Shown in pieces: positions 17,970 to 30,018 of a stretch of DNA of 64,000 nt; within the stretch, counting starts at the first letter, position 1; the number at the start of each line of letters is the position of its first letter. The stretch covers positions 2,784,001 to 2,848,000 of the forward strand of contig OZ253580.1 of assembly GCA_965263035.1 (NCBI GenBank), read 5' to 3'. The stretch comes from Acidobacteriota bacterium (GTDB lineage Bacteria > Acidobacteriota > UBA6911 > RPQK01 > JAJDTT01). The notes under the pieces are model-generated. The model was not told where the DNA came from. It worked only from the letters and a program-made list of their open reading frames with translations, and searched no databases. The position numbers were made by a program, and so were the translations under genes.

Positions 17970-19412
17970 ATGAGTTGCGTCCGGGTCCGATTCGCCCCCA
18001 GCCCGACCGGATTCCTTCACCTCGGTGGGGCTCGGACCGCCCTCTTCAACTGGCTCCTCGCCAGAAAAGAGCAGGGAACCTTCATTTTGCGGATCGAGGA
18101 TACGGACGCCCGGCGATCCAGTCAGGAGATGGCTCGCGAAATCATGGAGAGTCTGCGCTGGCTGGGTCTGGCCTGGGATCAGGGTCCTTACTATCAATCG
18201 GAACGTCTGGATCTGTACCGTGAAACGGTCGGAAGAGCCTTCCATGGCGACCATGCCTACGCCTGCTTCTGCCCCCCGGAAGCAATTCAGGCTCATTCGC
18301 TCGAGGCCCGTTCGGCAGGCCGGATCTGGAGGGACCATGGATGCCGGAATCGTTCCTCCCACCGAGCCAAGTCGCGGATCGCGGCGGGAGAATCCCACAC
18401 CCTCCGCTTCCGGGTTCCGGGGCGCCGCCGGATCATCTTCCAGGATCAAGTCTACGGAAAGGTATCGCTCACCACCGAGAACGTCGAGGACTTCACGCTC
18501 CTCCGATCCGACGGAAGCCCCACTTACCACCTCAGCGTGGTGACCGACGATTGGGAGATGGGTATCTCCCACGTGATCCGGGGAGCGGACCATCTATCCA
18601 ATACTCCGAAACAGATCCTGCTGCATGAAGCTCTCGGCAACCAGGCGCCCGTCTATGCCCACCTGCCTCTGATTCTGGGTCCTGACAAGAAACGGCTGAG
18701 CAAGAGAACCGGGGCCGAGTCGGTACTCGAGTATCGGAACCATGGATTCCTTCCCGTGGCGCTTCGCAACTATCTGGCGCTCCTCGGATGGTCTCCGGGC
18801 GACGACCGCGAACTCTTCTCCAACGGTGAGTTGGTGAAGAGCTTTGGTCTGGATCGGGTCAACAAAGCCAATGCTGTCTTCGATCGGCGGAAGTTGGACT
18901 GGATGAACTCCCGCTATCTGGCCAGCTCGAGCAGCCACGATCTGGTCCGGCACCTGCAACCTTTCCTCGAACGCTCCGGATTCCGGCAGGGTCGGGGGAA
19001 TGACGACCAACTGCTCCCGGTCATCACCCTGCTCAAGAGCCGATTGAACCGGCTCTCGGACTTTCCCGAGATGGCGACTCCTTTCCTGGCCGACCATTTT
19101 GATTATGAATCCAAGGCAGTGAAACGCCACTTTTCCCCGGCGGACCCGGAGGAACGTTCTCGACTCCGAAAATGGCTGGAAACCCTGGCCAACGAATATG
19201 ACCAACTTGAGGAGTTCAACCTGGAAAACGTGGAGACGGTGCTCCGGGGAACGGCCAAGGAATCCGGCTTCAAGATCGGAGTCTTCTTTGGGGCCGTGCG
19301 CGTGGCTTTGACGGGACGGACCGCGGCTCCTGGAATCTTCGACGTGATCGTCACACTGGGCCGGAAAAGAGTCGTCGAGCGCCTCAACAGGTGTCTGAAA
19401 CTCCTCCCATGA
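17970..19412 (+). CDS. gltX: glutamate--tRNA ligase
   Basis: RFAPSPTGFLHLGG, LRIEDTD, RGADHLSN and RLSKR motifs. Confidence 0.96.
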   Translation: MSCVRVRFAPSPTGFLHLGGARTALFNWLLARKEQGTFILRIEDTDARRSSQEMAREIMESLRWLGLAWDQGPYYQSERLDLYRETVGRAFHGDHAYACFCPPEAIQAHSLEARSAGRIWRDHGCRNRSSHRAKSRIAAGESHTLRFRVPGRRRIIFQDQVYGKVSLTTENVEDFTLLRSDGSPTYHLSVVTDDWEMGISHVIRGADHLSNTPKQILLHEALGNQAPVYAHLPLILGPDKKRLSKRTGAESVLEYRNHGFLPVALRNYLALLGWSPGDDRELFSNGELVKSFGLDRVNKANAVFDRRKLDWMNSRYLASSSSHDLVRHLQPFLERSGFRQGRGNDDQLLPVITLLKSRLNRLSDFPEMATPFLADHFDYESKAVKRHFSPADPEERSRLRKWLETLANEYDQLEEFNLENVETVLRGTAKESGFKIGVFFGAVRVALTGRTAAPGIFDVIVTLGRKRVVERLNRCLKLLP

Positions 19413-20200
19413 GGCCCGTCGTCCTCTCTGTCATCATCCCCGCATACAACGAGGAAAATCGGCTGGGAGCCAGCCTCAGGAGGATCATCACCTGCCTGGA
19501 GGGCCGAAGCAGTCCCTTCGAACTGGTGGTCGTAGACGATGGTTCGTCCGATGGTACCGTCCGCACGGCCATTTCGGCGGTGCGGGCCCGAGGGCGGGAA
19601 GAATGTCTCCGGGTCCTGGAGAACGGGACCAACCGGGGCAAAGGCTACAGTGTGCGGCGCGGCATGCTCACCGCCCGCGGGACACACGCTCTCCTCACCG
19701 ACGCCGATCTGAGCACTCCCATCGAGGAGATCGCCAAGCTGGAGCGGGAAATGGCTCGGGGAGGACACCAGATTGCGTTTGGATCGAGAGGCTTGAAGGA
19801 CTCTCAGACCCAGAAGCGTCAGAGCATCTTCCGAGAGACGGCCGGGAAGATCTTCAACCTGGCCATGAGACTCGTGACCGGATTGCCATACCGGGACACG
19901 CAGTGCGGATTCAAGCTGTTCGAACTGGAATCATGCCGGGTCCTTTTCCGGAAACAGCGGCTGAAGAGCTATGCCTTCGACGTGGAAATCCTTTATCTTG
20001 CCCGCAAGGCCGAACTGGCGGCTCGAGAGGTCGGGGTCATCTGGCGTCACCACTCCGACAGCAAGATCCATCTCCTCAGAGACGGCGTCGGACTCTTGCA
20101 AGGTCTGATCTCCATCCGTTGGAACGATCTGCTCGGCCGCTACGATGAGGATGAACGAAACAGAAACTTACGACCGACAACCGAGGGGAACGACTCATGA
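19409..20200 (+). CDS. GT2 glycosyltransferase (polyprenol-phosphate hexosyltransferase-like)
   Basis: IIPAYNE, VDDGSSD, NRGKG, DAD and DTQCGFK motifs; ATGA overlap with gltX. Confidence 0.9.
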
Positions 20201-20931
20201 CCAGACTGGGTGTGAATGTGGACCACGTGGCCACGGTTCGGCAGGCTCGCCGGGCCCCCGAGCCGGATCCGGTGACCGCAGCGCTGCTGGCCGAGCTGGC
20301 AGGCGCCGACGGCATCACCGTACACTTGCGCGGAGACCGGCGCCATATTCGAGAGCGGGACGTGCGGCTGCTGCGGAAGGTCGTCACCACCCGGCTCAAC
20401 CTGGAAATGGCCGTCACCGAAGAGATGATGGAAATCGCGACCCGGCTCCGTCCCAATACCGCCAGCCTGGTGCCGGAAACCGATGAAGAGGTCACTACCG
20501 AAGGAGGATTGGATGTCACGGCGCGGGCCGAATCGATCCGCTCCGCGATCCGTACCCTGGAAACAGCAGGGTTGGAGGTCTCCCTGTTCATCGATCCCGA
20601 TCTGGAGCAGTTGGACGCCGCTTCCCGGATTGGCGCGCGCGTGGTGGAACTCAACACGGCGGCCTATGCCGACGCCGTACCCAAGGGTTTGTCGGAACAC
20701 GAACCGGAATTCGGGCGGGAGCTGGACAAGATCGTGGAAGCCACGGAATTTGCCGCCTCCCGGGGCATTCGGGTCTTGGCGGGTCACGGACTAACCTATC
20801 GGAACGTGCGACCCGTATCGCGAATCCCTCAAATCGAAGAGCTCAACATCGGACACAACATCGTGGCTCGAGCCACTCTGGTGGGCATGGAGCGCGCCGT
20901 CAGAGAGATGTTGCGCGCCATGAACGAATGA
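20197..20931 (+). CDS. pdxJ: pyridoxine 5'-phosphate synthase
   Basis: [27 protein letters not shown] and ELNIGH motifs. Confidence 0.96.
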
Positions 20932-21830
20932 ATTGCGAGACTCGTCTTCCATCCCCGGGAAACACCCCGCCTGGAACTCTCCATGTTTTGGCCACGCCAT
21001 TGGGACACTTGGGGGATCTGAGCCCACGGGCGCGCGAAGTTCTCACTTCCGTCGAACTAGTCGCTTGTGAGGACACTCGACATTCCGGAAAGCTGCTCAC
21101 CAGCTTCGCCATCCGCACTCGCACCATCAGCTACCATGAACACAATGAAACGGCTCAGGCCCAGACCCTCTTGAACCGGCTCCGCCAGGGTCAGAACATT
21201 GCCTTGATCAGCAATGCCGGGACGCCCCTGGTCTCGGACCCCGGTTATCGCCTGGTGCGCCTTTGCCGGAAACACATGATTCCCGTCTCTCCGATCCCCG
21301 GTCCCTCGGCGGCCATCGCCGCGCTGTCGGTTTCCGGACTTCCCACCGATCGGTTTCTGTTTGCCGGATTCCTTCCCAGGCGGTCCGGACCCATGCGCCG
21401 CGAGCTGGAGGCGCTGAAGGACTTGAAGGCAACGTTGATTCTCTATGTGGCGCCGCACAGACTGGCCTCAACCCTGGAGATGGCCCGGGAAGTCCTGGGT
21501 GATCGTCAGACCTGCCTGGCCAAGGAGATGACCAAGATCCACGAATCGTTCTACCTGGGAGCCCTGAGCCAGATAGGCTCCCTGGCCGGCAGCCAGCCGA
21601 AAGGGGAGTACACACTGGTCATCGAAGGGGCCGCATCTCAGTCTCCGAGGGTTTCGAACCTGGATCCGGAAGCCTACGTGGAAGGACTGATTCAGGTTCG
21701 AGATCTGACTCGTTCCCAGGCCGTGCGAGCCGCCGCGCGCGCCTTGGGGCTCCCTCGCCGCGAGGTCTACCGCCGCTGCCTCGAAGGTGGAGAGCTGCCC
21801 GACCGCCGTGAAGGATCCGGTGGAATCTGA
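20928..21830 (+). CDS. rsmI: 16S rRNA (C1402-2'-O)-methyltransferase
   Basis: [33 protein letters not shown] and KGEY motifs. Confidence 0.93.
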
Positions 21831-21916
21831 GGAAATATTCAGAAAATCTGCATTACGATCGGGATATTCTCACATTACTTGATCATCTTCCGTTATTTGT
21901 TGTATAAATATGAATT
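21826..21916 (+). promoter_or_regulatory. AT-rich promoter with candidate ArgR ARG boxes
   Basis: TCTGAGGAAATATTCAGA (21826-21843), 3-bp spacer, half-box TCTGCAT; GTTGTATAAATATGAATT (21899-21916) overlapping TTGATC-N18-TATAAA; resembles the TGAATWWWWATTCA consensus. Confidence 0.55.
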
Positions 21917-21946
21917 CTTGTCCCTCAACGGGATTGGTGACAGAGC

Positions 21947-23032
21947 ATGAACGACTTGGAGCACGCGACGAGTCTTGCGACTCCGGCTACTACCAGTGTT
22001 GACGCCATCTCCTCGGTGGTCTCTCGTCTCCAGCTTCCTGTGAACTTCCGGCTGGGACATCCGGACCAGATTGACTACGGCCAGATCGTGGCGGCTCGCG
22101 TCCGGAGCGTAAACCTCTCCTATCCGGTGTTGGAGACCACAGGGGGCCGGGGTATCCGCCTCCGGGAGGGCATGAAAATAGTCGGTGCTCTTGGTGCCCG
22201 ACGAGCTCTCCACGGGTTCTCCGGACGCTTGCCGGCGCGACTCGGCCCAGGAGCGGTCTTCCACCTTCTGAACAAAGGGGGTGTGATGGGCGAGTGTACC
22301 GCCTTTCATCGTGCCTTGGGTTGGCCGGCAGAGCTCGAGTATCTCGGAACCGTTCACCATGGGGGCAGGTTTCTGGGTCTCCGGGACGGCGCCCTTCCCT
22401 CGCTTTCCCATTCCCTTCCCAGGATTCCCGTGATCCTGGTGCTGGGGACCTGCATGAACTCCGGAAAAACCGCCGTCTGCAAGCAGATTCTCCGCCTCTT
22501 CTCCCAAAAGGGCTTCAACGTCAACGCGGGCAAGGTGGCCGGTGTGGCAGCGTGCGCCGACCTGGAGGCAATGCGGAAGAGCGGGGCCGGCCGGGTCCTG
22601 AGTTTTAATGACCTGGGCCTTCCCTCCAGCGCCCATTTGTCCGATCTCTCCACCGTCGCCCGGTCGCTGGTGCACCACTTGTCCTCCCCGCGTCCGGACT
22701 TCACCCTGCTGGAGGCGGGCGACGGAATTCTGGGCGGCTATCATGTTGATTCTCTGCTCCATGACGATCATTTGCTGGAACGAGTCGTGAGCGTGGTCCT
22801 GTGCGCCAACGACCTGATGGGAGTCTGGGGATCCCTGGAGTGGTTGCGCCAACAAGGCCACGAACCTCAGGAGCTGTCGCTGCTGGTGTCGGGCCCGGCC
22901 ACCGACAGCGCTGAGGGAATTCGCTACATCGAGCGGCATTTCCGGGTTCCTGCGGCCAACGCCTTCGAGAGCTCCGGAAAGCTGTGCACCTTCATCCTGA
23001 AACGGTTGATACCATGGTCAAGATCGGCATAG
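21947..23032 (+). CDS. DUF1611/DgcN-like P-loop protein; candidate alternative N-acetylglutamate synthase
   Basis: GTCMNSGKT P-loop-like motif, GKVAG, F.D.GLPSS and EAGDG motifs; first gene of the arg operon, overlapping argC. Confidence 0.7.
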   Translation: MNDLEHATSLATPATTSVDAISSVVSRLQLPVNFRLGHPDQIDYGQIVAARVRSVNLSYPVLETTGGRGIRLREGMKIVGALGARRALHGFSGRLPARLGPGAVFHLLNKGGVMGECTAFHRALGWPAELEYLGTVHHGGRFLGLRDGALPSLSHSLPRIPVILVLGTCMNSGKTAVCKQILRLFSQKGFNVNAGKVAGVAACADLEAMRKSGAGRVLSFNDLGLPSSAHLSDLSTVARSLVHHLSSPRPDFTLLEAGDGILGGYHVDSLLHDDHLLERVVSVVLCANDLMGVWGSLEWLRQQGHEPQELSLLVSGPATDSAEGIRYIERHFRVPAANAFESSGKLCTFILKRLIPWSRSA

Positions 23033-24024
23033 CGGGCGGGTCGGGATACAGCGGCGGGGAACTGATCCGCAACCTGGCCAAACATCCCCAAGCGCAGTTG
23101 ACCTGGATCTCCTCCCGGCAATTCTCCGGTCAACCTGTGGCATCCCTCTATCCCAACTTGCGGGGATTCGTGGATTGTCATTTCGACAGTCTGGATTCTC
23201 TTGCGGACACCGACTTGGATGTCCTTTTCCTGGCCTTGCCCCATGGCCATGCCATGAAGATCCTGCCGCGGCTTCCTCGGGACCTGATCGTCATCGACCT
23301 GAGCGGAGATTTTCGCATTTCCGATGCCGCCAGCTTCGAGCAGCACTACGGATTTGTCCAAGAGGCCCCACAACTTCAGTCCACCTTCGTCTATGGCCTT
23401 CCCGAGATCCATCGGGACCGGATACGCCAGAGCTCCAGGGTCGCCAATCCGGGGTGCTTTGCCACCGCTACCATTCTTGCCCTCCACCCTCTGTACCAGG
23501 AGGGGTGGGTCAAGGGGCCCGTTTTCGTAGACACCAAAACCGGATCCTCCGGGGCTGGTCGGGTGCCCGGCCACAAAACCCATCATCCCCGGCGGAGCAA
23601 CAGCTTCTTTCCCTACAAGCCGTTTCGCCACCAGCACGTGGCCGAAATCTCACAGATCCTGGACACCGCCGCCCACCCGCTGGTTTTCCAGACCTACTCC
23701 ACACCCTTGGTCCGGGGCATTTTTGCCAGCCACTACATGGAGTTGGACCGGCCGCTGCGGGCCGACGAAGTCCGGGATCTCTACTCCAGCTATTACGGAA
23801 ACGAATTCTTCATTCGTTGGGTCGGCGAAGACCCGGACATCAACTTCGTCCGCAATGGGAACTTCGTGGATCTGGGCGCGGCCCACGACGACCATTTCCT
23901 CATTGTCTGGTCGACGCTGGACAATCTACAGAAGGGCGCTGCCGGCCAGGCCATTCAGAATATGAACCTGATCTGCGGCCTCCCGGAAACCATGGGACTC
24001 GATTTCCCTCCGTCACATCCGTGA
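23014..24024 (+). CDS. argC: N-acetyl-gamma-glutamyl-phosphate reductase
   Basis: GGSGYSGGEL, DLSGDFR, ANPGCFAT, GSSGAG and DNLQKGAAGQA motifs. Confidence 0.93.
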   Translation: MVKIGIAGGSGYSGGELIRNLAKHPQAQLTWISSRQFSGQPVASLYPNLRGFVDCHFDSLDSLADTDLDVLFLALPHGHAMKILPRLPRDLIVIDLSGDFRISDAASFEQHYGFVQEAPQLQSTFVYGLPEIHRDRIRQSSRVANPGCFATATILALHPLYQEGWVKGPVFVDTKTGSSGAGRVPGHKTHHPRRSNSFFPYKPFRHQHVAEISQILDTAAHPLVFQTYSTPLVRGIFASHYMELDRPLRADEVRDLYSSYYGNEFFIRWVGEDPDINFVRNGNFVDLGAAHDDHFLIVWSTLDNLQKGAAGQAIQNMNLICGLPETMGLDFPPSHP

Positions 24025-24050
24025 CGGACTCGACTCGGCAGGGAGAAAAA

Positions 24051-25220
24051 ATGAGAGAACTTGCCAACACCGTCATGGAAACGGAGGACCGGTACCAGCT
24101 CAAGACCTACGCGAAGCTGCCGTTGGTGCTGGATCGGGGCCGCGGTTGCTACGTCTATGACCAGGACGGAAACGAATACCTGGATCTGTACGGCGGCCAC
24201 GCCGTGGTCTCGACCGGCCACTGCCACCCCCGGGTCGTGGAAGCCATTCGCACTCAGGTCGAGGAGATTCTCTTCTATTCCAACGTGGTCTACAGCTCGG
24301 TCCGCGCTCGGGCGGTCAAGAAGCTGATGGAATTTGCGGGACCACCCTACTGGCAGGCGTTCTTGGCCAATTCGGGCAGCGAGGCCAACGAGAGCGCCAT
24401 CAAGGTGGCCCGTGCCCTGACCGGCAGGCCCACAGTTCTGTCCCTCTCAAATTCCTTTCACGGACGTACTTACGGAAGTCTGTCCAGCACCGGTGTCTCC
24501 CATTACGCCGAGTATCTGAACACTCCCGTCCCCGGTCATCGTATTCTGGATCTCCAGGAAATCGCCGTTTCCGTCGATTCGGAAACGGCCGCCGTCCTGC
24601 TGGAGCCGATCCAGAGCATGGGTGGAGTGAAGGAGGTTCCGGAAAAGACTCTCCGTCAGATCCACGACGCCTGCCGCAGTCACGGGTCGTTCCTCATTTT
24701 CGACGAGGTCCAGACCGGAGTCGGCCGCACCGGCAGCTTCCTCTACGCCGGCACCGGAGGAATCTACCCCGAGATGGTCACCCTGGCCAAAGGGATCGCA
24801 TCGGGAGTTCCCGCCAGTGCGCTTCTGGTGACCCGCGAAGTGGCGGAACGGGTGCGGTCGGGGGACTTGGGCGCCACCTTCGGAGGGGCCCCCATTTCCT
24901 GTGCCGCCATGGAAGCCACGCTTCAGGTTCTGGAAGAGGAGAACCTGATCCAGAATGCGGCACGGATCGGAAGCTACCTGCAGCATGAGCTGGAGGCCCT
25001 GCCCTGGGTTGAGGAGGTCCGGGGAAGGGGGCTCTTGCTGGGCATCAAGATCAAGGGAGGAACGGCCAAGGATCTGGGGCGTTTCCTGCGGGCAAGCAGA
25101 ATCCTGACCGGTACCTCCAGCAATCCGTCCGTGCTTCGCCTGATGCCGCCGCTGGTCCTTGGACGAAATGAGGCCGATGCCTTCCTGGAGGTGATCCGCG
25201 ACTATGAACCTGGTCATTAA
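24051..25220 (+). CDS. argD: acetylornithine aminotransferase (class III)
   Basis: YLDLYGGHAV, NSGSEANE, FHGRT, DEVQTG and TLAKG motifs; GGGAG SD before ATG 24051. Confidence 0.9.
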   Translation: MRELANTVMETEDRYQLKTYAKLPLVLDRGRGCYVYDQDGNEYLDLYGGHAVVSTGHCHPRVVEAIRTQVEEILFYSNVVYSSVRARAVKKLMEFAGPPYWQAFLANSGSEANESAIKVARALTGRPTVLSLSNSFHGRTYGSLSSTGVSHYAEYLNTPVPGHRILDLQEIAVSVDSETAAVLLEPIQSMGGVKEVPEKTLRQIHDACRSHGSFLIFDEVQTGVGRTGSFLYAGTGGIYPEMVTLAKGIASGVPASALLVTREVAERVRSGDLGATFGGAPISCAAMEATLQVLEEENLIQNAARIGSYLQHELEALPWVEEVRGRGLLLGIKIKGGTAKDLGRFLRASRILTGTSSNPSVLRLMPPLVLGRNEADAFLEVIRDYEPGH

Positions 25221-26022
25221 GCTGAGCGGAAAGGTCCTGGAACAGGAGAGCCTCCGCCGTTCTCTCTGTAATCAGATCACGGCCCTGATTCGCGCTCCCC
25301 ATCGGATTATTCTGATCCACGGAGGCGGAAAGCAACTTTCCGGCCTCTGCGAACGGTTGGGAATTCCGGTGGTGCAGCACGAGGGACGCCGGGTCACCGA
25401 CGAGCCTACGTTGAACGCTGCGAAGATGGTCTTCTCGGCCGCCAACCGGGACTTGGTGGCGACGTTGAATTCCTGCGGCGCAAGAGCCATCGGCTTTGCC
25501 AGCTTCGATGCCGGACTGGTTCGCTGCCGCCGGCGGGGACCGGTCCCCGTGCGGACCGCCGGATGCAACGGCGTCTCCGAGAAACAATTGGTGGATTTCG
25601 GTCTGGTCGGAGAGATCGAGAGCGTCGATCCTCGTCTGATTCAGGACCTCTGGGCTGCGAATCTGCTTCCGGTGGTGAGTTGCCTGTGCGCTACCGATGA
25701 CGGCCGAATTCTCAATATCAACGCCGACACTCTCGCCGCCAGACTCGCCACCGCGTTGCGGGCCGACTGCCTGGTGTCGGTGACCGACGTGGACGGTCTC
25801 TATCTGGACGACTTTCGCGAAACGGTGCCCCGGCTGACCGCGGATGAGGTCCGCGTGCACTTGCGGTCCGGTGTCATCAGCGACGGGATGGTCCCCAAGA
25901 TTCAGACCGCCTTGAAGGCATTGGAGCAACAGATTCCCATGGTCCAGATCGTGGGCGGATTGGCGCCCAACGGTCTGATCAGGGGCATCGAGGGTCTGGC
26001 GGGCACCCGCATCGTCCCCTGA
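25204..26022 (+). CDS. argB: acetylglutamate kinase
   Basis: VIKLSG, IHGGG, GRRVTD, LNINAD and GMVPK motifs. Confidence 0.92.
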   Translation: MNLVIKLSGKVLEQESLRRSLCNQITALIRAPHRIILIHGGGKQLSGLCERLGIPVVQHEGRRVTDEPTLNAAKMVFSAANRDLVATLNSCGARAIGFASFDAGLVRCRRRGPVPVRTAGCNGVSEKQLVDFGLVGEIESVDPRLIQDLWAANLLPVVSCLCATDDGRILNINADTLAARLATALRADCLVSVTDVDGLYLDDFRETVPRLTADEVRVHLRSGVISDGMVPKIQTALKALEQQIPMVQIVGGLAPNGLIRGIEGLAGTRIVP

Positions 26023-26049: not shown

Positions 26050-27546
26050 TCAGGCGTCCAGCGCCAGAACGGGTTTCGACAAACCCAGCTCCTGCTCCAG
26101 CACATGCGCGACCCGCAGTAACAGACCTTCCCCGAAGTGGGGCCCCAGCAGCTGCAGTCCGATCGGCACGCCCTCAGGTGTGTAGGCGCAAGTGGTGGCC
26201 ACTCCGGGAATGCCCGCCAGATTGGCAGTGACCGTGTACACGTCCGACAAGTACATCTCCAAGGGATCAGCGGTCATGTCGCCCTGCCGAAACGGCAGTG
26301 ATGGAGCGGTGGGACCCATCAGAACGTCCGCCCGCTCGAAAGCTCTGCAGTAATCCTCCTTGACCAGGGTCCGAACCTTGCTGGCCTTGAGGTAATACGC
26401 ATCGTAGTAGCCGGCACTCAAGACATAGGTCCCGATCATGATCCGCCGCTTGACCTCGTCTCCGAATCCTTCGCTGCGGCTGTTTCGATAGGTTTCCTCC
26501 AGGGCCCCGATCCTGCTGCTCCGGTGGCCATATCGCATTCCGTCGTAGCGAGCCAGATTCGAACTCGCCTCGGCCAGAGCAATGATGTAGTAGGTGGCTA
26601 TCGCGAACTCCGTATGGGGCAGATCGACCTCCACGACCTGACACCCAACAGCCTCCAGCTTGGCTGCCGCGCGCCGGACCGCAGCTTCGATCCGCCGGTC
26701 CAGACCGGACGAGAACCACTCCGCCGGAAGACCGATCCTCAAGCCTCGGACGTCCCCTTCGAGTGCTGCAACATAATCTTCCACCGGCCGCCTTGCGGAG
26801 GTCGAGTCCATTGGATCGTAGCCGGACACGACCTGCAGAATCATGGCCGCGTCACGTGCAGTGTGGGCCAGCGGTCCAATCTGGTCCAGCGAGGAGGCAA
26901 ACGCCACCAGTCCGTAACGGGAAACCCTCCCGTAGGTCGGTTTCAATCCCACGACTCCACAGAAGGCGGCGGGCAGGCGAATCGAGCCGCCGGTGTCACT
27001 CCCCAGGGCACCCGGAGCCTCCATTGCGGCCACCGCCGCGGCCGATCCGCCGCTGGACCCGCCGGGAACTCTGTTCAGGTCCCAGGGATTGCGGGTGGGG
27101 AAGAATCCCGAGTTCTCGGTGGTGGAACCCATGGCGAACTCGTCCAGATTGGTCTTTCCCAGAATCAGCCCTCCGTCAGCCCGGAGACGGGCGACCGATG
27201 TGGCTTCGTAGGGGGGAACGTAATGCTCCAGAATCCGGGACCCGCAGGTCGTCCGCATTCCCCGGGTAACAATATTATCCTTCACGGCCAAGGGAATTCC
27301 GGTCAACAGGCCGAGCTCCCTTTTCCCCGAGGCCAGAGTCTGATCCAGAGCCCGGGCCTCGTCCAGCAGAGTATCCGCACCAACGCTGATGAAGGCCTGG
27401 ACCTTGGGATCTCGCGACCGAATCCGCCGCAGGTAGGCTTCGGCGATTTCTACCGATGAGATCTGCCGATTCTTGATCGCCCGGTGCAGTTGGGCAATGG
27501 ACAGATCGCAGATTTCACACGCCGATCCGGGTGACTCGTGTTCCAT
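26050..27546 (-). CDS. gatA: Asp/Glu-tRNA amidotransferase subunit A
   Basis: GKTNLDEFAMGS, PGGSSGGS, GSDTGGSIR and SSNLARYDG motifs. Confidence 0.96.
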   Translation of the reverse strand: MEHESPGSACEICDLSIAQLHRAIKNRQISSVEIAEAYLRRIRSRDPKVQAFISVGADTLLDEARALDQTLASGKRELGLLTGIPLAVKDNIVTRGMRTTCGSRILEHYVPPYEATSVARLRADGGLILGKTNLDEFAMGSTTENSGFFPTRNPWDLNRVPGGSSGGSAAAVAAMEAPGALGSDTGGSIRLPAAFCGVVGLKPTYGRVSRYGLVAFASSLDQIGPLAHTARDAAMILQVVSGYDPMDSTSARRPVEDYVAALEGDVRGLRIGLPAEWFSSGLDRRIEAAVRRAAAKLEAVGCQVVEVDLPHTEFAIATYYIIALAEASSNLARYDGMRYGHRSSRIGALEETYRNSRSEGFGDEVKRRIMIGTYVLSAGYYDAYYLKASKVRTLVKEDYCRAFERADVLMGPTAPSLPFRQGDMTADPLEMYLSDVYTVTANLAGIPGVATTCAYTPEGVPIGLQLLGPHFGEGLLLRVAHVLEQELGLSKPVLALDA

Positions 27547-27842
27547 CACTCGATGACCCTGGGCACTCGGAAGTACCCCTTTTGAGCCTTGGGCGATCCC
27601 TCCAGGACGGCTTCCGGTGCCAGCGAGGGCCGGGTTCGGTCGGGACGTACGGCACCCTCGCCCGGGATCTCCGCCAGGCCATGGTAGGTCGGCGCCACCC
27701 CTTTCGTGTCCACCTGCTGGAGCTGCTCAAAATAATCCAGAATTCGCTGGAACTGGGCGACGAACCGCTGCAGTTCATCGGGAGAGAATTCCAGATGGGC
27801 CAACTCGGCGATTCTTCGGACCTCTTTGGGAGTGATGCTCAT
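27546..27842 (-). CDS. gatC: Asp/Glu-tRNA amidotransferase subunit C
   Basis: ITPKEVRRIAELAHL...YFRVPRVIE; directly upstream of gatA. Confidence 0.92.
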   Translation of the reverse strand: MSITPKEVRRIAELAHLEFSPDELQRFVAQFQRILDYFEQLQQVDTKGVAPTYHGLAEIPGEGAVRPDRTRPSLAPEAVLEGSPKAQKGYFRVPRVIE

Positions 27843-28795
27843 TGGACTTTCCTCTCGAGAACCGAATCCGACTTCATTCCATATTTGCGGGCCATCCGGA
27901 CATCGCACCCGACTCGCCGTCTCAAAGCCGCAAGGTTGGAGAATCGCCTCTCCGCACGCAGCCTGTACCAGAAATCGAGCGTCATGAACTCTCCGTACAG
28001 GTCGCAGTCCGCATCCAGCAAGTAGGTCTCCACCAACGGCTTGTCCGCGGGTTCGCCCAATGTGGGGCGGTAGCCTATATTGGTGGCGCCGACAAAAACA
28101 GCGCCGTTGACCGTCGCTCGGGTGACGTACACCCCAGTTGCCGGTATGAGCTCGCTGGCCGGCTGAAGATTCGCCGTGGGGTATCCCAGGTCCGCGCCTC
28201 TGCCCGATCCCCTCACCACCGTACCCAGAATCTGGTAGGGCCGGTCCAGGAGGCGCCGGCAGAGCGCCACCCTCCCTTGGCCCAACAGCTTGCGGACGAC
28301 CGTACTGCTGACACGTTGTCCCCGAAAACGGACCGAATCGATGGAATAGACATCAAACCCGAACTTCCGCCCCAGGGATTCCAGGGTCATGAAATCGCCT
28401 GCTCTCCCGTACCCGAAGCGAAAGTTGCTACCCACGTGGATCTCTTTCATGCCATGGGATCCCAGGACATCCCGGACGAAACGTTCGGGACTGAATCGGG
28501 AGACCTGACGGCTGAAGGGGAAACGAACCAGGATGTCCAGATCCATCTCCCTGAGGAGACGATGCTTCTGCACCGGCAACTGCAAAAGGGAAGGCGCGTC
28601 CGCGGGCGAAATGATTTTCTGAGGATGAGGGGAGAAGGTGAGGAGAATCCCGGTCCCGTTCATTTCTCGAGCCCGCTCCACCACCCGTTTGACGATCGCC
28701 TGGTGTCCCAGATGCAGGCCGTCAAAAACGCCGATCGTGGCCACCGGATACGGTAACCCGGGAGGGAGCTTCTTCAGGTCGTCAATGATCTGCAT
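27839..28795 (-). CDS. ribF: bifunctional riboflavin kinase/FAD synthetase
   Basis: IGVFDGLHLGHQ, FRFG, VSST, GYPTAN and NIGYRPT motifs. Confidence 0.95.
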   Translation of the reverse strand: MQIIDDLKKLPPGLPYPVATIGVFDGLHLGHQAIVKRVVERAREMNGTGILLTFSPHPQKIISPADAPSLLQLPVQKHRLLREMDLDILVRFPFSRQVSRFSPERFVRDVLGSHGMKEIHVGSNFRFGYGRAGDFMTLESLGRKFGFDVYSIDSVRFRGQRVSSTVVRKLLGQGRVALCRRLLDRPYQILGTVVRGSGRGADLGYPTANLQPASELIPATGVYVTRATVNGAVFVGATNIGYRPTLGEPADKPLVETYLLDADCDLYGEFMTLDFWYRLRAERRFSNLAALRRRVGCDVRMARKYGMKSDSVLERKVQ

Positions 28796-28834
28796 GTTCC
28801 TTCACGATGCGGGAGGTCGCGCCGGCGACTCGAG

Positions 28835-29590
28835 TCATACCTCCAGGACAAGACCGTCATGGGCCAGACTGACTGACTCCGGCAGGTAGGCATTTCCCTC
28901 GTCGTGGTCCACTTCGTGGCAGATGTGGACCAGATAGGTTCGCTCGGGCCCAATGCGAGCCGCCGCCTCGACCGCTTCCGACAGGCTGAAGTGCGTTGGA
29001 TGACTCTGATAACGAAGGCCGTCCAGCACCAGGCACTCCACCCCTCGGAGACGCTCGAAGCTGACCTCCGGAATATAGCTCACATCGGTCAGGTAGGCGA
29101 GACGCCCGATTCGGAAACCCAGCACCGGCATCCGGCCATGCATGAGGTCGATGGGCTCGATTTCCAGATCACCCACTCGGAACCTGCCGGCAACCGGAAT
29201 CAGCTGGACGCTGGGAACGCCGGGATAACCCTTGCCGTCGAACAGGTGACGAAAGGTCACCGCGATCTCTTTGAGTGTGGCTTCACTTCCATAGGCGGGT
29301 ACCGTCCGCTCCGACCACATGTTGAACGGGTAAACGTCGTCGAGTCCGAGAATGTGGTCCACGTGAGAATGGGTATAGAGGAGAGCGTCGAGGTGACGAA
29401 CTCCGCACCGAAGCATCTGAACACGGAAGTCGACGGAAGTATCGATGACCAGTGTCACCGTGCCCTGGATCAGAAGCGAACTGCGCAGCCGATGGTTTTT
29501 CGGATCGTCCGACAAGCAAACCTTGCAATCACATCCAATGACGGGAATGCCGCGGGAGGTCCCGGTTCCAAGAAACGTCACCCGCATCAC
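28835..29590 (-). CDS. MBL-fold metallo-hydrolase (PhnP-like)
   Basis: LGTGTSRGIPVIGCDC, THSHVDH and YLTD motifs. Confidence 0.9.
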   Translation of the reverse strand: MMRVTFLGTGTSRGIPVIGCDCKVCLSDDPKNHRLRSSLLIQGTVTLVIDTSVDFRVQMLRCGVRHLDALLYTHSHVDHILGLDDVYPFNMWSERTVPAYGSEATLKEIAVTFRHLFDGKGYPGVPSVQLIPVAGRFRVGDLEIEPIDLMHGRMPVLGFRIGRLAYLTDVSYIPEVSFERLRGVECLVLDGLRYQSHPTHFSLSEAVEAAARIGPERTYLVHICHEVDHDEGNAYLPESVSLAHDGLVLEV

Positions 29591-30018
29591 AGCTTGATCG
29601 AGTTGGACTGCCTCATGACACCCATCTGCATCTCGTAGATCAGGCTGTCCAACAGCCTCGCCTCCTCCTCTGAAAGATTCCCTAGAGTCTTGTCCCTCAG
29701 CACCGACAGGATTTCAATCATCTGTCTGGCGCCCGAAAGGTTCTCCTGTTTCTTGCCGGTTACCGGGTCAGGAATGGCGCCCAGATGAACCATGCCAGTG
29801 GTGGCCAGAGACAGGACGAATCCGGAAAAATCCATCCCTGCTTCACCGGAAGCTTCGCCTGCTCCGGAAGCCCGCGGCACCCTCGCGTCCGTCCCGGCCG
29901 TGCGTTTCTCCACATCCTTCGATGCCTTCTCCGGCCGGGCCGCTCGCAACTCTCCATCCTCGGCGAAGATCCTTCGATCGCGAACCTTGAATCCTCCCTG
30001 GCCTGACTCTCCCGTCAT
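29587..30018 (-). CDS. DUF1844 family protein
   Basis: FKVRDRRIF N-terminus; F..FVLSL...HLG.IPDP...A..MIEIL..L..KT.GNL..EE pattern. Confidence 0.85.
   Translation of the reverse strand: MTGESGQGGFKVRDRRIFAEDGELRAARPEKASKDVEKRTAGTDARVPRASGAGEASGEAGMDFSGFVLSLATTGMVHLGAIPDPVTGKKQENLSGARQMIEILSVLRDKTLGNLSEEEARLLDSLIYEMQMGVMRQSNSIKL

Follow-up and report, generated by a model that had tools for sequence, protein, structure and literature searches.

Two of the described systems close to the locus analyzed here concern arginine synthesis. In the Bacteroidota succinyl route, as set out in PMC7311316, a GNAT ArgA of the BT3761 type acts together with a succinylglutamate kinase, a succinylornithine transcarbamoylase (SOTCase) and a succinylcitrulline desuccinylase, the ArgB of B. 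fragilis being reported as a succinyl-specific succinylglutamate kinase. The second is a published prediction: in section 12 and S1B Text of PMC13759103 (GapMind 2024/2026), the family of Steroidobacter ACG33_RS14135 is predicted to be an N-succinylglutamate synthase, on the grounds of its linkage to arg operons, its exclusion with Pseudomonas ArgA (109 vs. 970 genera), residue 92 of ArgF' and a distant resemblance to DgcN in Foldseek. Here we describe a gene, called X, that heads the arginine operon argC-argD-argB in a 64,000-nucleotide stretch of an Acidobacteriota genome (assembly GCA_965263035.1, contig OZ253580.1, positions 2,784,001 to 2,848,000; hereafter the window). Protein X very probably performs step 1 of arginine synthesis. 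The step-1 prediction for the family is already in print; added here are a candidate succinyl marker in ArgB, a predicted hybrid route and a case for ATP-dependent chemistry.

Gene X as a candidate for step 1

The arginine operon headed by X is real. As originally described, a 361-aa open reading frame (ORF) with the motifs GTCMNSGKT (residues 167-175) and EAGDG (residues 256-260) overlaps argC, by 19 nt given an argC start at ATG 23014, and precedes argC, argD and argB. The argC and argB products score above the cut-offs of TIGR01850 (356 vs. 234 bits) and TIGR00761 (190 vs. 151 bits), respectively, and the top NCBIfam matches of argD are acetylornithine transaminase models, under their cut-offs (349 vs. 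457 and 335 vs. 410).

Co-occurrence with arg genes and mutual exclusion with argA and argJ, by which the original prediction had suggested judging the homologues, were both seen. Another arg gene was present in 79 of 80 X loci (the best 80 of 371), the exception being a 2.1-kb contig, with argC in 71, argB in 63, argD in 57, argG in 40, argF' in 37, argR in 32 and argH in 30. In a survey of 251 Acidobacteriota genomes, 66 were scored as X-positive (a full-length match of >300 bits); this count omits 8 genomes whose sole match is a 130-165-bit paralogue (ArgJ is present in 3), 2 that have fragments and 4 whose P-loop matches are weak. ArgJ was found in none of the 66 X genomes vs. 71 of the 185 others, and full-length classical ArgA in only 2 of the 251, both without X. 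One row of these tallies is an unpublished genome (G023), on which the conclusions do not depend. Relatives with 88-91% identity are from Acidobacteriota; the family apparently supplies step 1 in about a quarter of the sampled genomes of this phylum, and in 109 genera by the count given in PMC13759103.

The absence of argA- and argJ-like genes from the window, noted at the outset, extends to the whole genome, a single 6.2-Mb contig that is 97% complete. Neither ArgJ (control positive in 10 of 14) nor short ArgA (22 bits) was found in it, the only match to classical ArgA was argB itself, three Bacteroidota GNAT ArgA proteins had no match, and the Xanthomonas synthase domain (NAGS) again recovered only argB; PF04768 gave no match either, its control being silent too. 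Judged from linkage and distribution, X is a well-supported step-1 candidate. We also considered X as a non-catalytic NTPase that regulates or assembles ArgB, ArgC and ArgD, with step 1 performed by an unrecognized GNAT encoded elsewhere. The SIMIBI folds, to which the P-loop domain of X belongs (see below), include UreG, HypB and the SRP GTPases, and the genomes contain many GNATs; however, strict exclusion of ArgJ and ArgA would be unexpected for a regulator and none of the four known ArgA types sought was found, making this alternative very improbable.

The suspicion that related proteins had already been proposed for this role proved correct, as the text of section 12 and S1B of PMC13759103 attests. 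X can be placed in the predicted ACG33_RS14135 family because of its full-length similarity to P0145, a Steroidobacter-like stand-in (33% identity over 347 aa), its position with P0145 in one clade of the tree (support 100/99), apart from 14 distant paralogues, and the conservation, by eye, of 43 of the 46 invariant columns of our alignment (A1) in the gene of the PMC13759103 plasmid file. Its score ratio to P0145 (174/718 = 0.24) lies just under the working limits of PMC13759103 (0.25-0.30); nine paralogues reach 77-101 bits. Like the published family, X is arg-operon-linked and exclusive with classical ArgA. The differences are as follows, as far as the relevant text of PMC13759103 goes: its succinyl argument rests on ArgF', whereas the clade of X has an ordinary ornithine transcarbamoylase (OTC) and no ArgF', so that the linkage used for that argument, which is not part of the family definition, is absent from this genome; exclusion is reported there for Pseudomonas ArgA only and extends here to ArgJ; and the P-loop, ATP and the ArgB determinant are not discussed.

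The distant paralogues of X are not arg-linked, and 3 of 9 are in genomes with ArgJ; the neighborhoods of these nine and of three plasmid paralogues are varied and do not reveal their chemistry. A separate non-arg subfamily (L099-L107, 130-165 bits) has the same P-loop residues and lies next to ABC transporters, M20 carboxypeptidases, flavin reductases or a protein combining seven transmembrane segments with an ATP-grasp domain. Another distant paralogue, on Priestia megaterium plasmid NZ_CP085446.1 (L174:5950-7011), is part of a biosynthetic cluster that also encodes an OTC, an M20 peptidase, a member of the PEP-mutase family, two ATP-grasp proteins and a pair of thiamine-dependent enzymes. 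Such a gene set suggests that a phosphonate peptide is made, with one acylation and one deacylation step. A Blastocatellia-like X operon is also present in two genomes that bear the label uncultured Clostridia (L042 and L072).

The acyl group and the route to ornithine

Residue Arg62 of the window's ArgB aligns with Leu65 of E. coli ArgB, which adjoins the substrate-binding Arg66. Arginine occupies this position in every ArgB scored from X loci (63 of 63; 27 of 27 from the clade of X itself) and in 5 of 5 Bacteroidota kinases. Of the kinases encoded in 20 argJ regions, 12 could be scored and none has it; it is likewise absent from the E. coli and Xanthomonas proteins and from four acetylglutamate kinases of solved structure. 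Provided that the acetyl pocket is lined by Leu65, an arginine here would suit the carboxylate of a succinyl group. In the tree, the Arg-type kinases form a single clade (support 86/88), and those of the X clade nest among ArgF'-linked kinases. The ArgC proteins tell a similar story, with a Tyr-Lys...His-Gln-His motif in 66 of 66 scorable ArgC ORFs (X loci hold 72) and in all three Bacteroidota proteins compared. Lastly, by residue criteria for ArgF' and OTC taken from PMC4581275, the acetyl-type Glu92 is present in the Xanthomonas control and in none of the 37 ArgF' proteins of X loci (Thr 25, Ala 6, Val 2, Ser 2, Pro 2).

Succinyl is thus the likelier acyl group, since ArgB and ArgC bear Bacteroidota-type signatures and the ArgF' proteins of sister loci are succinyl-type. 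If X does perform step 1, these residues indicate that its product is probably succinylated; for both to hold together, the chances are reasonably good. The original prediction of a step-1 enzyme unrelated to GNAT ArgA or ArgJ stands as the most likely function, while the acetyl group that it assumed is probably wrong. If the product is indeed succinylated, X on its own would probably not complement an E. coli argA mutant. With the ArgB marker, annotators would be able to assign the acyl group where a genome has no ArgF'. Besides the ArgC segment, X loci share with the Bacteroidota route the Gly-Arg-Arg motif and clade of ArgB and the gene slot before argG/argC; in contrast, step 1 is performed by a GNAT there and by a P-loop protein here, and Bacteroidota carbamoylate N-succinylornithine whereas the X clade is predicted to carbamoylate free ornithine.

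The ArgC segment had been read as LysY-like. The segment is there, but the LysW carrier that it brought to mind is unsupported, the pattern being common to the three Bacteroidota ArgC proteins. A LysW-type pathway in which X replaces LysX/ArgX is hardly credible: ArgB, ArgC and ArgD do score moderately against LysZ, LysY and LysJ models and the role is one that an ATP-dependent ligase could fill, yet neither lysW (control positive in 4 genomes) nor lysX was found in this genome, the 80 X loci contain no conserved small ORF above the 60-aa limit of the search (a 54-aa LysW would fall under it), and ArgF', which acts on small N-acylornithines, is encoded in 52 of the 66 X genomes.

Of the 14 X genomes without ArgF', 13 belong to four families of the order to which this genome, itself devoid of ArgF', belongs. 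An OTC over the cut-off was found in 12 of 12 checked among these 13. The genome under study encodes a canonical OTC with the DxxxSMG motif in a second operon, argR-argG-argH-argF (C1:903-907 kb); the same arrangement, with this ornithine-binding motif, was seen in 11 regions of the clade. In three clade genomes (L158, L160 and L161), the best OTC lies beside an ornithine-aminotransferase-like gene rather than argG-argH, and may be catabolic. With an ordinary OTC and no ArgF', the acyl group must come off at ornithine in this clade. No succinyl route with an ordinary OTC, and no ATP-dependent N-succinylglutamate ligase, was found in a literature search that covered mainly open-access papers; within that coverage, the predicted ordinary-OTC succinyl route of the clade is apparently undescribed.

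The deacylase that such a route calls for was harder to place. Family scans, tblastn with operon-linked M20 proteins and a search of 21 regions assigned no desuccinylase. The genome encodes nine full-length M20 candidates; three deacylase candidates are left, none of them arg-linked (C1:2558.7 kb, 4229.6 kb and 5678.2 kb). Two ArgE-like genes score 244 and 241 bits, against a cut-off of 298. Together with the canonical OTC and the absence of ArgF', they fit an acetyl route equally well, in which X would make N-acetylglutamate, the clade having switched to acetyl on trading ArgF' for OTC, and ArgE-like enzymes would deacetylate the product. DgcN, which reportedly uses an acetyl group, and P0155 also speak for this alternative. 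P0155 is a metagenomic protein of 626 aa in which an X homologue is followed by an amino-acid-kinase domain at the C-terminus, an architecture that mirrors classical ArgA and in itself favors a role in step 1; by eye, the kinase domain is degenerate, missing its catalytic motifs and keeping arginine-binding-like ones, and its acyl position is occupied by Leu instead of Arg. No fused forms turned up among proteins of 658-2000 aa, though this counts for little. Against acetyl, the ArgB proteins of the clade have Arg62 throughout and nest among ArgF'-linked kinases, the Bacteroidota-like segment of ArgC is kept, and several clade genomes (e.g. G108, G151, G032, G096 and G048) have no ArgE-like gene of about 240 bits. 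We consider an acetyl product unlikely.

A third possibility is that X recycles the acyl group as ArgJ does, from N-acylornithine or N-acylcitrulline to glutamate, which would cover the gaps left by ArgA and ArgE at once. This would fit the complete exclusion of ArgJ, the presence of an M20 deacylase in only 7 of 80 X loci, though many hold all other arg genes, and its absence from the 11 argR-argG-argH-argF operons of the clade; S. denitrificans also lacks ArgE, according to PMC13759103. However, nothing in X is conserved better than its Mg-nucleoside triphosphate site, for which a transacylation has no need; there is no invariant nucleophile (Cys169 is present in 61 of 80 X loci and Cys286 varies among representatives); and deacylases do occur in those seven loci, with M20 candidates present in this genome. 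Recycling thus appears quite improbable. Many Pyrinomonadaceae loci (L052-L086) have argH divergent from argR-argG-X-argC-argD-argF'-argB, with no deacylase gene in the cluster.

Domains of X and the proposed chemistry

Structure models of X (predicted local distance difference test scores of 92 for full X and 94) show two domains. Its C-terminal P-loop domain matches BioD 3OF5 (Z 15.4, rmsd 3.2, 183 aligned residues) as well as it matches the DUF1611 protein 2G0T (Z 15.4; range 14.3-15.4 over 7XRJ, 2OBN and 2G0T), with DgcN itself (7XRJ) at Z 14.3 (rmsd 3.4, 182 aligned). In a Foldseek search, ranks 1-5 were BioD (E 3.4e-6) and DgcN was rank 20. The N-terminal beta-domain, in which Arg85 is conserved in 98 of 101 X-family representatives, had no Foldseek match at E<=0.001 and a best structural Z of 3.1, which does not prove a new fold; DUF1611 entries are not among the structural matches listed for it, and families outside that list are possible.

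We had to abandon the idea that X is a DUF1611/DgcN-like protein, as it was first labelled. X should not be filed under DUF1611 because it has no Pfam DUF1611 match: no Pfam family, hence neither PF07755 nor PF17396, was found at E<=0.1, and the search of the genome with PF07755 was empty. Its N-terminal domain also appears to differ. Sequence searches of Pfam, NCBIfam and the PDB gave nothing useful, only weak MobB P-loop matches, and no GNAT, Ntn-hydrolase or ATP-grasp family of Pfam/NCBIfam. Profile-profile probability was 17.5% against six DUF1611 proteins and 3% against BioD, but the alignments used, of 6 and 5 close sequences, are too shallow to rank BioD vs. DUF1611. In some of the look-alike Atlas clusters, 11-16% of members carry PF07755. 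The DgcN link is also weaker than claimed, involving the P-loop domain only and tied with BioD, and acyl-CoA transfer can therefore not be deduced from it. X and DgcN share the P-loop fold, a Walker B-like Glu-Gly and proposed glutamate N-acylation, but DgcN is catabolic.

Dethiobiotin synthetase (BioD), CTP synthase and formyltetrahydrofolate synthetase are SIMIBI ATP-dependent C-N ligases. X shares with BioD a Walker A Gly-Lys-Thr, a second lysine at the same 22-residue spacing, an Asp and a Glu-x-x-Gly, and differs from it in its 12-15% identity, an extra beta-domain of 140 residues and its arg-operon context; the genome has a bioD of its own. Lys174 and Lys196 are present in 101 of 101 X-family representatives, down to ~22% identity, as are Thr175 in 96, Asp205 in 97 and Glu256 in 99, and all five are found in 80 of 80 X loci. 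We presume that these residues correspond to those of BioD with roles in Mg-ATP and acyl-phosphate chemistry; for Lys196 the equivalence rests on spacing and secondary structure, not on superposition. The six DUF1611 proteins examined, in contrast, have Gly-Lys-Arg in Walker A (no Thr) and no second lysine.

From this conservation X is predicted to bind Mg-ATP and, since two of the BioD-type residues are lost in DUF1611, may be an ATP-dependent ligase. By analogy, we slightly favor amide formation via an acyl phosphate, as in BioD-class ligases. The chances that X is an ATP ligase are about even, and those of its being an acyl-CoA transferase fall somewhat short of even. We propose that the BioD-like P-loop domain would bind Mg-ATP and activate succinate as an acyl phosphate, and that L-glutamate, held where this domain meets the N-terminal beta-domain, would displace the phosphate with its amino group. 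ArgB, ArgC and ArgD would then make N-succinylornithine, and an M20-family desuccinylase, needed in this route because the clade has no ArgF', would free ornithine for the ordinary OTC of the second operon; ArgR would repress both operons. Taken whole, that is, with X as an ATP-using, coenzyme A (CoA)-free succinate:L-glutamate ligase made of a BioD-like P-loop domain and an unmatched beta-domain, feeding a hybrid succinyl/ordinary-OTC route, and with Arg vs. Leu at ArgB position 65 as a genome-readable succinyl/acetyl marker, this reading is tentative and less likely than not. If the ligase part is true, N-acylglutamate could be made without CoA, and the unmatched domain would have a use.

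Beyond the OTC, the ArgE-like genes, the kinase domain of P0155 and the unassigned desuccinylase discussed above, several points weigh against this proposal. That Leu65 lines the acetyl pocket of E. coli ArgB is our assumption, the literature having confirmed only Arg66 as substrate-binding. As the Arg-type kinases form one clade, the link between Arg and succinyl would have a single origin, and could be a relic of that one event. More generally, the loci and genomes surveyed are kin, not independent samples, and G246, one of the X genomes, additionally encodes an ArgA-like acetyltransferase domain on its own. The profile alignment of X with BioD is weak and leaves Lys196 unpaired with the lysine of BioD. 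DgcN, whose P-loop domain has this fold too, is reported to be a D-glutamate N-acetyltransferase, according to a citation in PMC13759103 and the PDB title. Finally, PMC13759103 marks the family prediction as unconfirmed, and a plasmid for the predicted family, pALF12, appears in its supplement, with no strain in Table 5.

Features of the operon and its upstream region

Coordinates of gene X, its domains and neighboring elements in the window
Feature	Position	Strand	Basis
Putative second ArgR site, ARG-box-like dyad, overlapping the rsmI stop	21828..21841	.	read from sequence
Putative sigma-70 promoter: -35 TTGATC (21879-21884), -10 TATAAA (21903-21908), 18-nt spacer	21879..21908	+	read by eye
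ARG-box-like dyad, 14 nt, over the putative -10 element	21901..21914	.	2 mismatches to assumed consensus
Gene X, 361 aa, predicted alternative ArgA (N-acylglutamate synthase, likely succinyl)	21947..23032	+	ORF, searches, linkage, tree, model
N-terminal all-beta domain of X, residues ~15-148, conserved Arg85, putative substrate-binding	21989..22390	+	models, fold search
C-terminal SIMIBI-type P-loop domain of X, residues ~160-355: Walker A Lys174/Thr175, second Lys196, Asp205, Glu256	22424..23011	+	structure comparison
argC, N-acylglutamyl-phosphate reductase, Bacteroidota-like Tyr-Lys...His-Gln-His segment	23014..24024	+	TIGR01850
argD-like class III aminotransferase	24051..25220	+	PF00202
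argB, N-acylglutamate kinase, likely succinyl-type, Arg62 (codon 25387-25389) at the place of E. coli Leu65	25204..26022	+	TIGR00761, alignment

The AT-richness and the ARG-box-like dyads of the putative promoter noted before X were confirmed: the 116-nt gap upstream of X has 37% GC vs. 62% for the genome, and argR was found in the genome. Dyads were scored against what we take to be the ARG-box consensus. Sites with <=2 mismatches number 48 genome-wide, making the single site at 21901-21914 weak on its own, but such a site precedes X in 11 of 16 related loci. The upstream dyad is found at the same place in L007-L009, with 2 mismatches, and close relatives have TTGACT at the place of the -35 element. 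A 1-mismatch site lies upstream of the argR-argG-argH-argF operon of this genome, and two more are found at C1:543823 and C1:4157668.

The operon is flanked by housekeeping genes, namely gltX, a glycosyltransferase gene, pdxJ and rsmI on one side (17970-21830; pdxJ and rsmI by Pfam, the others by eye) and gatA, gatC, a ribF-like gene and a metallo-hydrolase gene on the other (26050-30018; the amidase by Pfam, the others by eye). The order of these flanking genes is kept across the clade.

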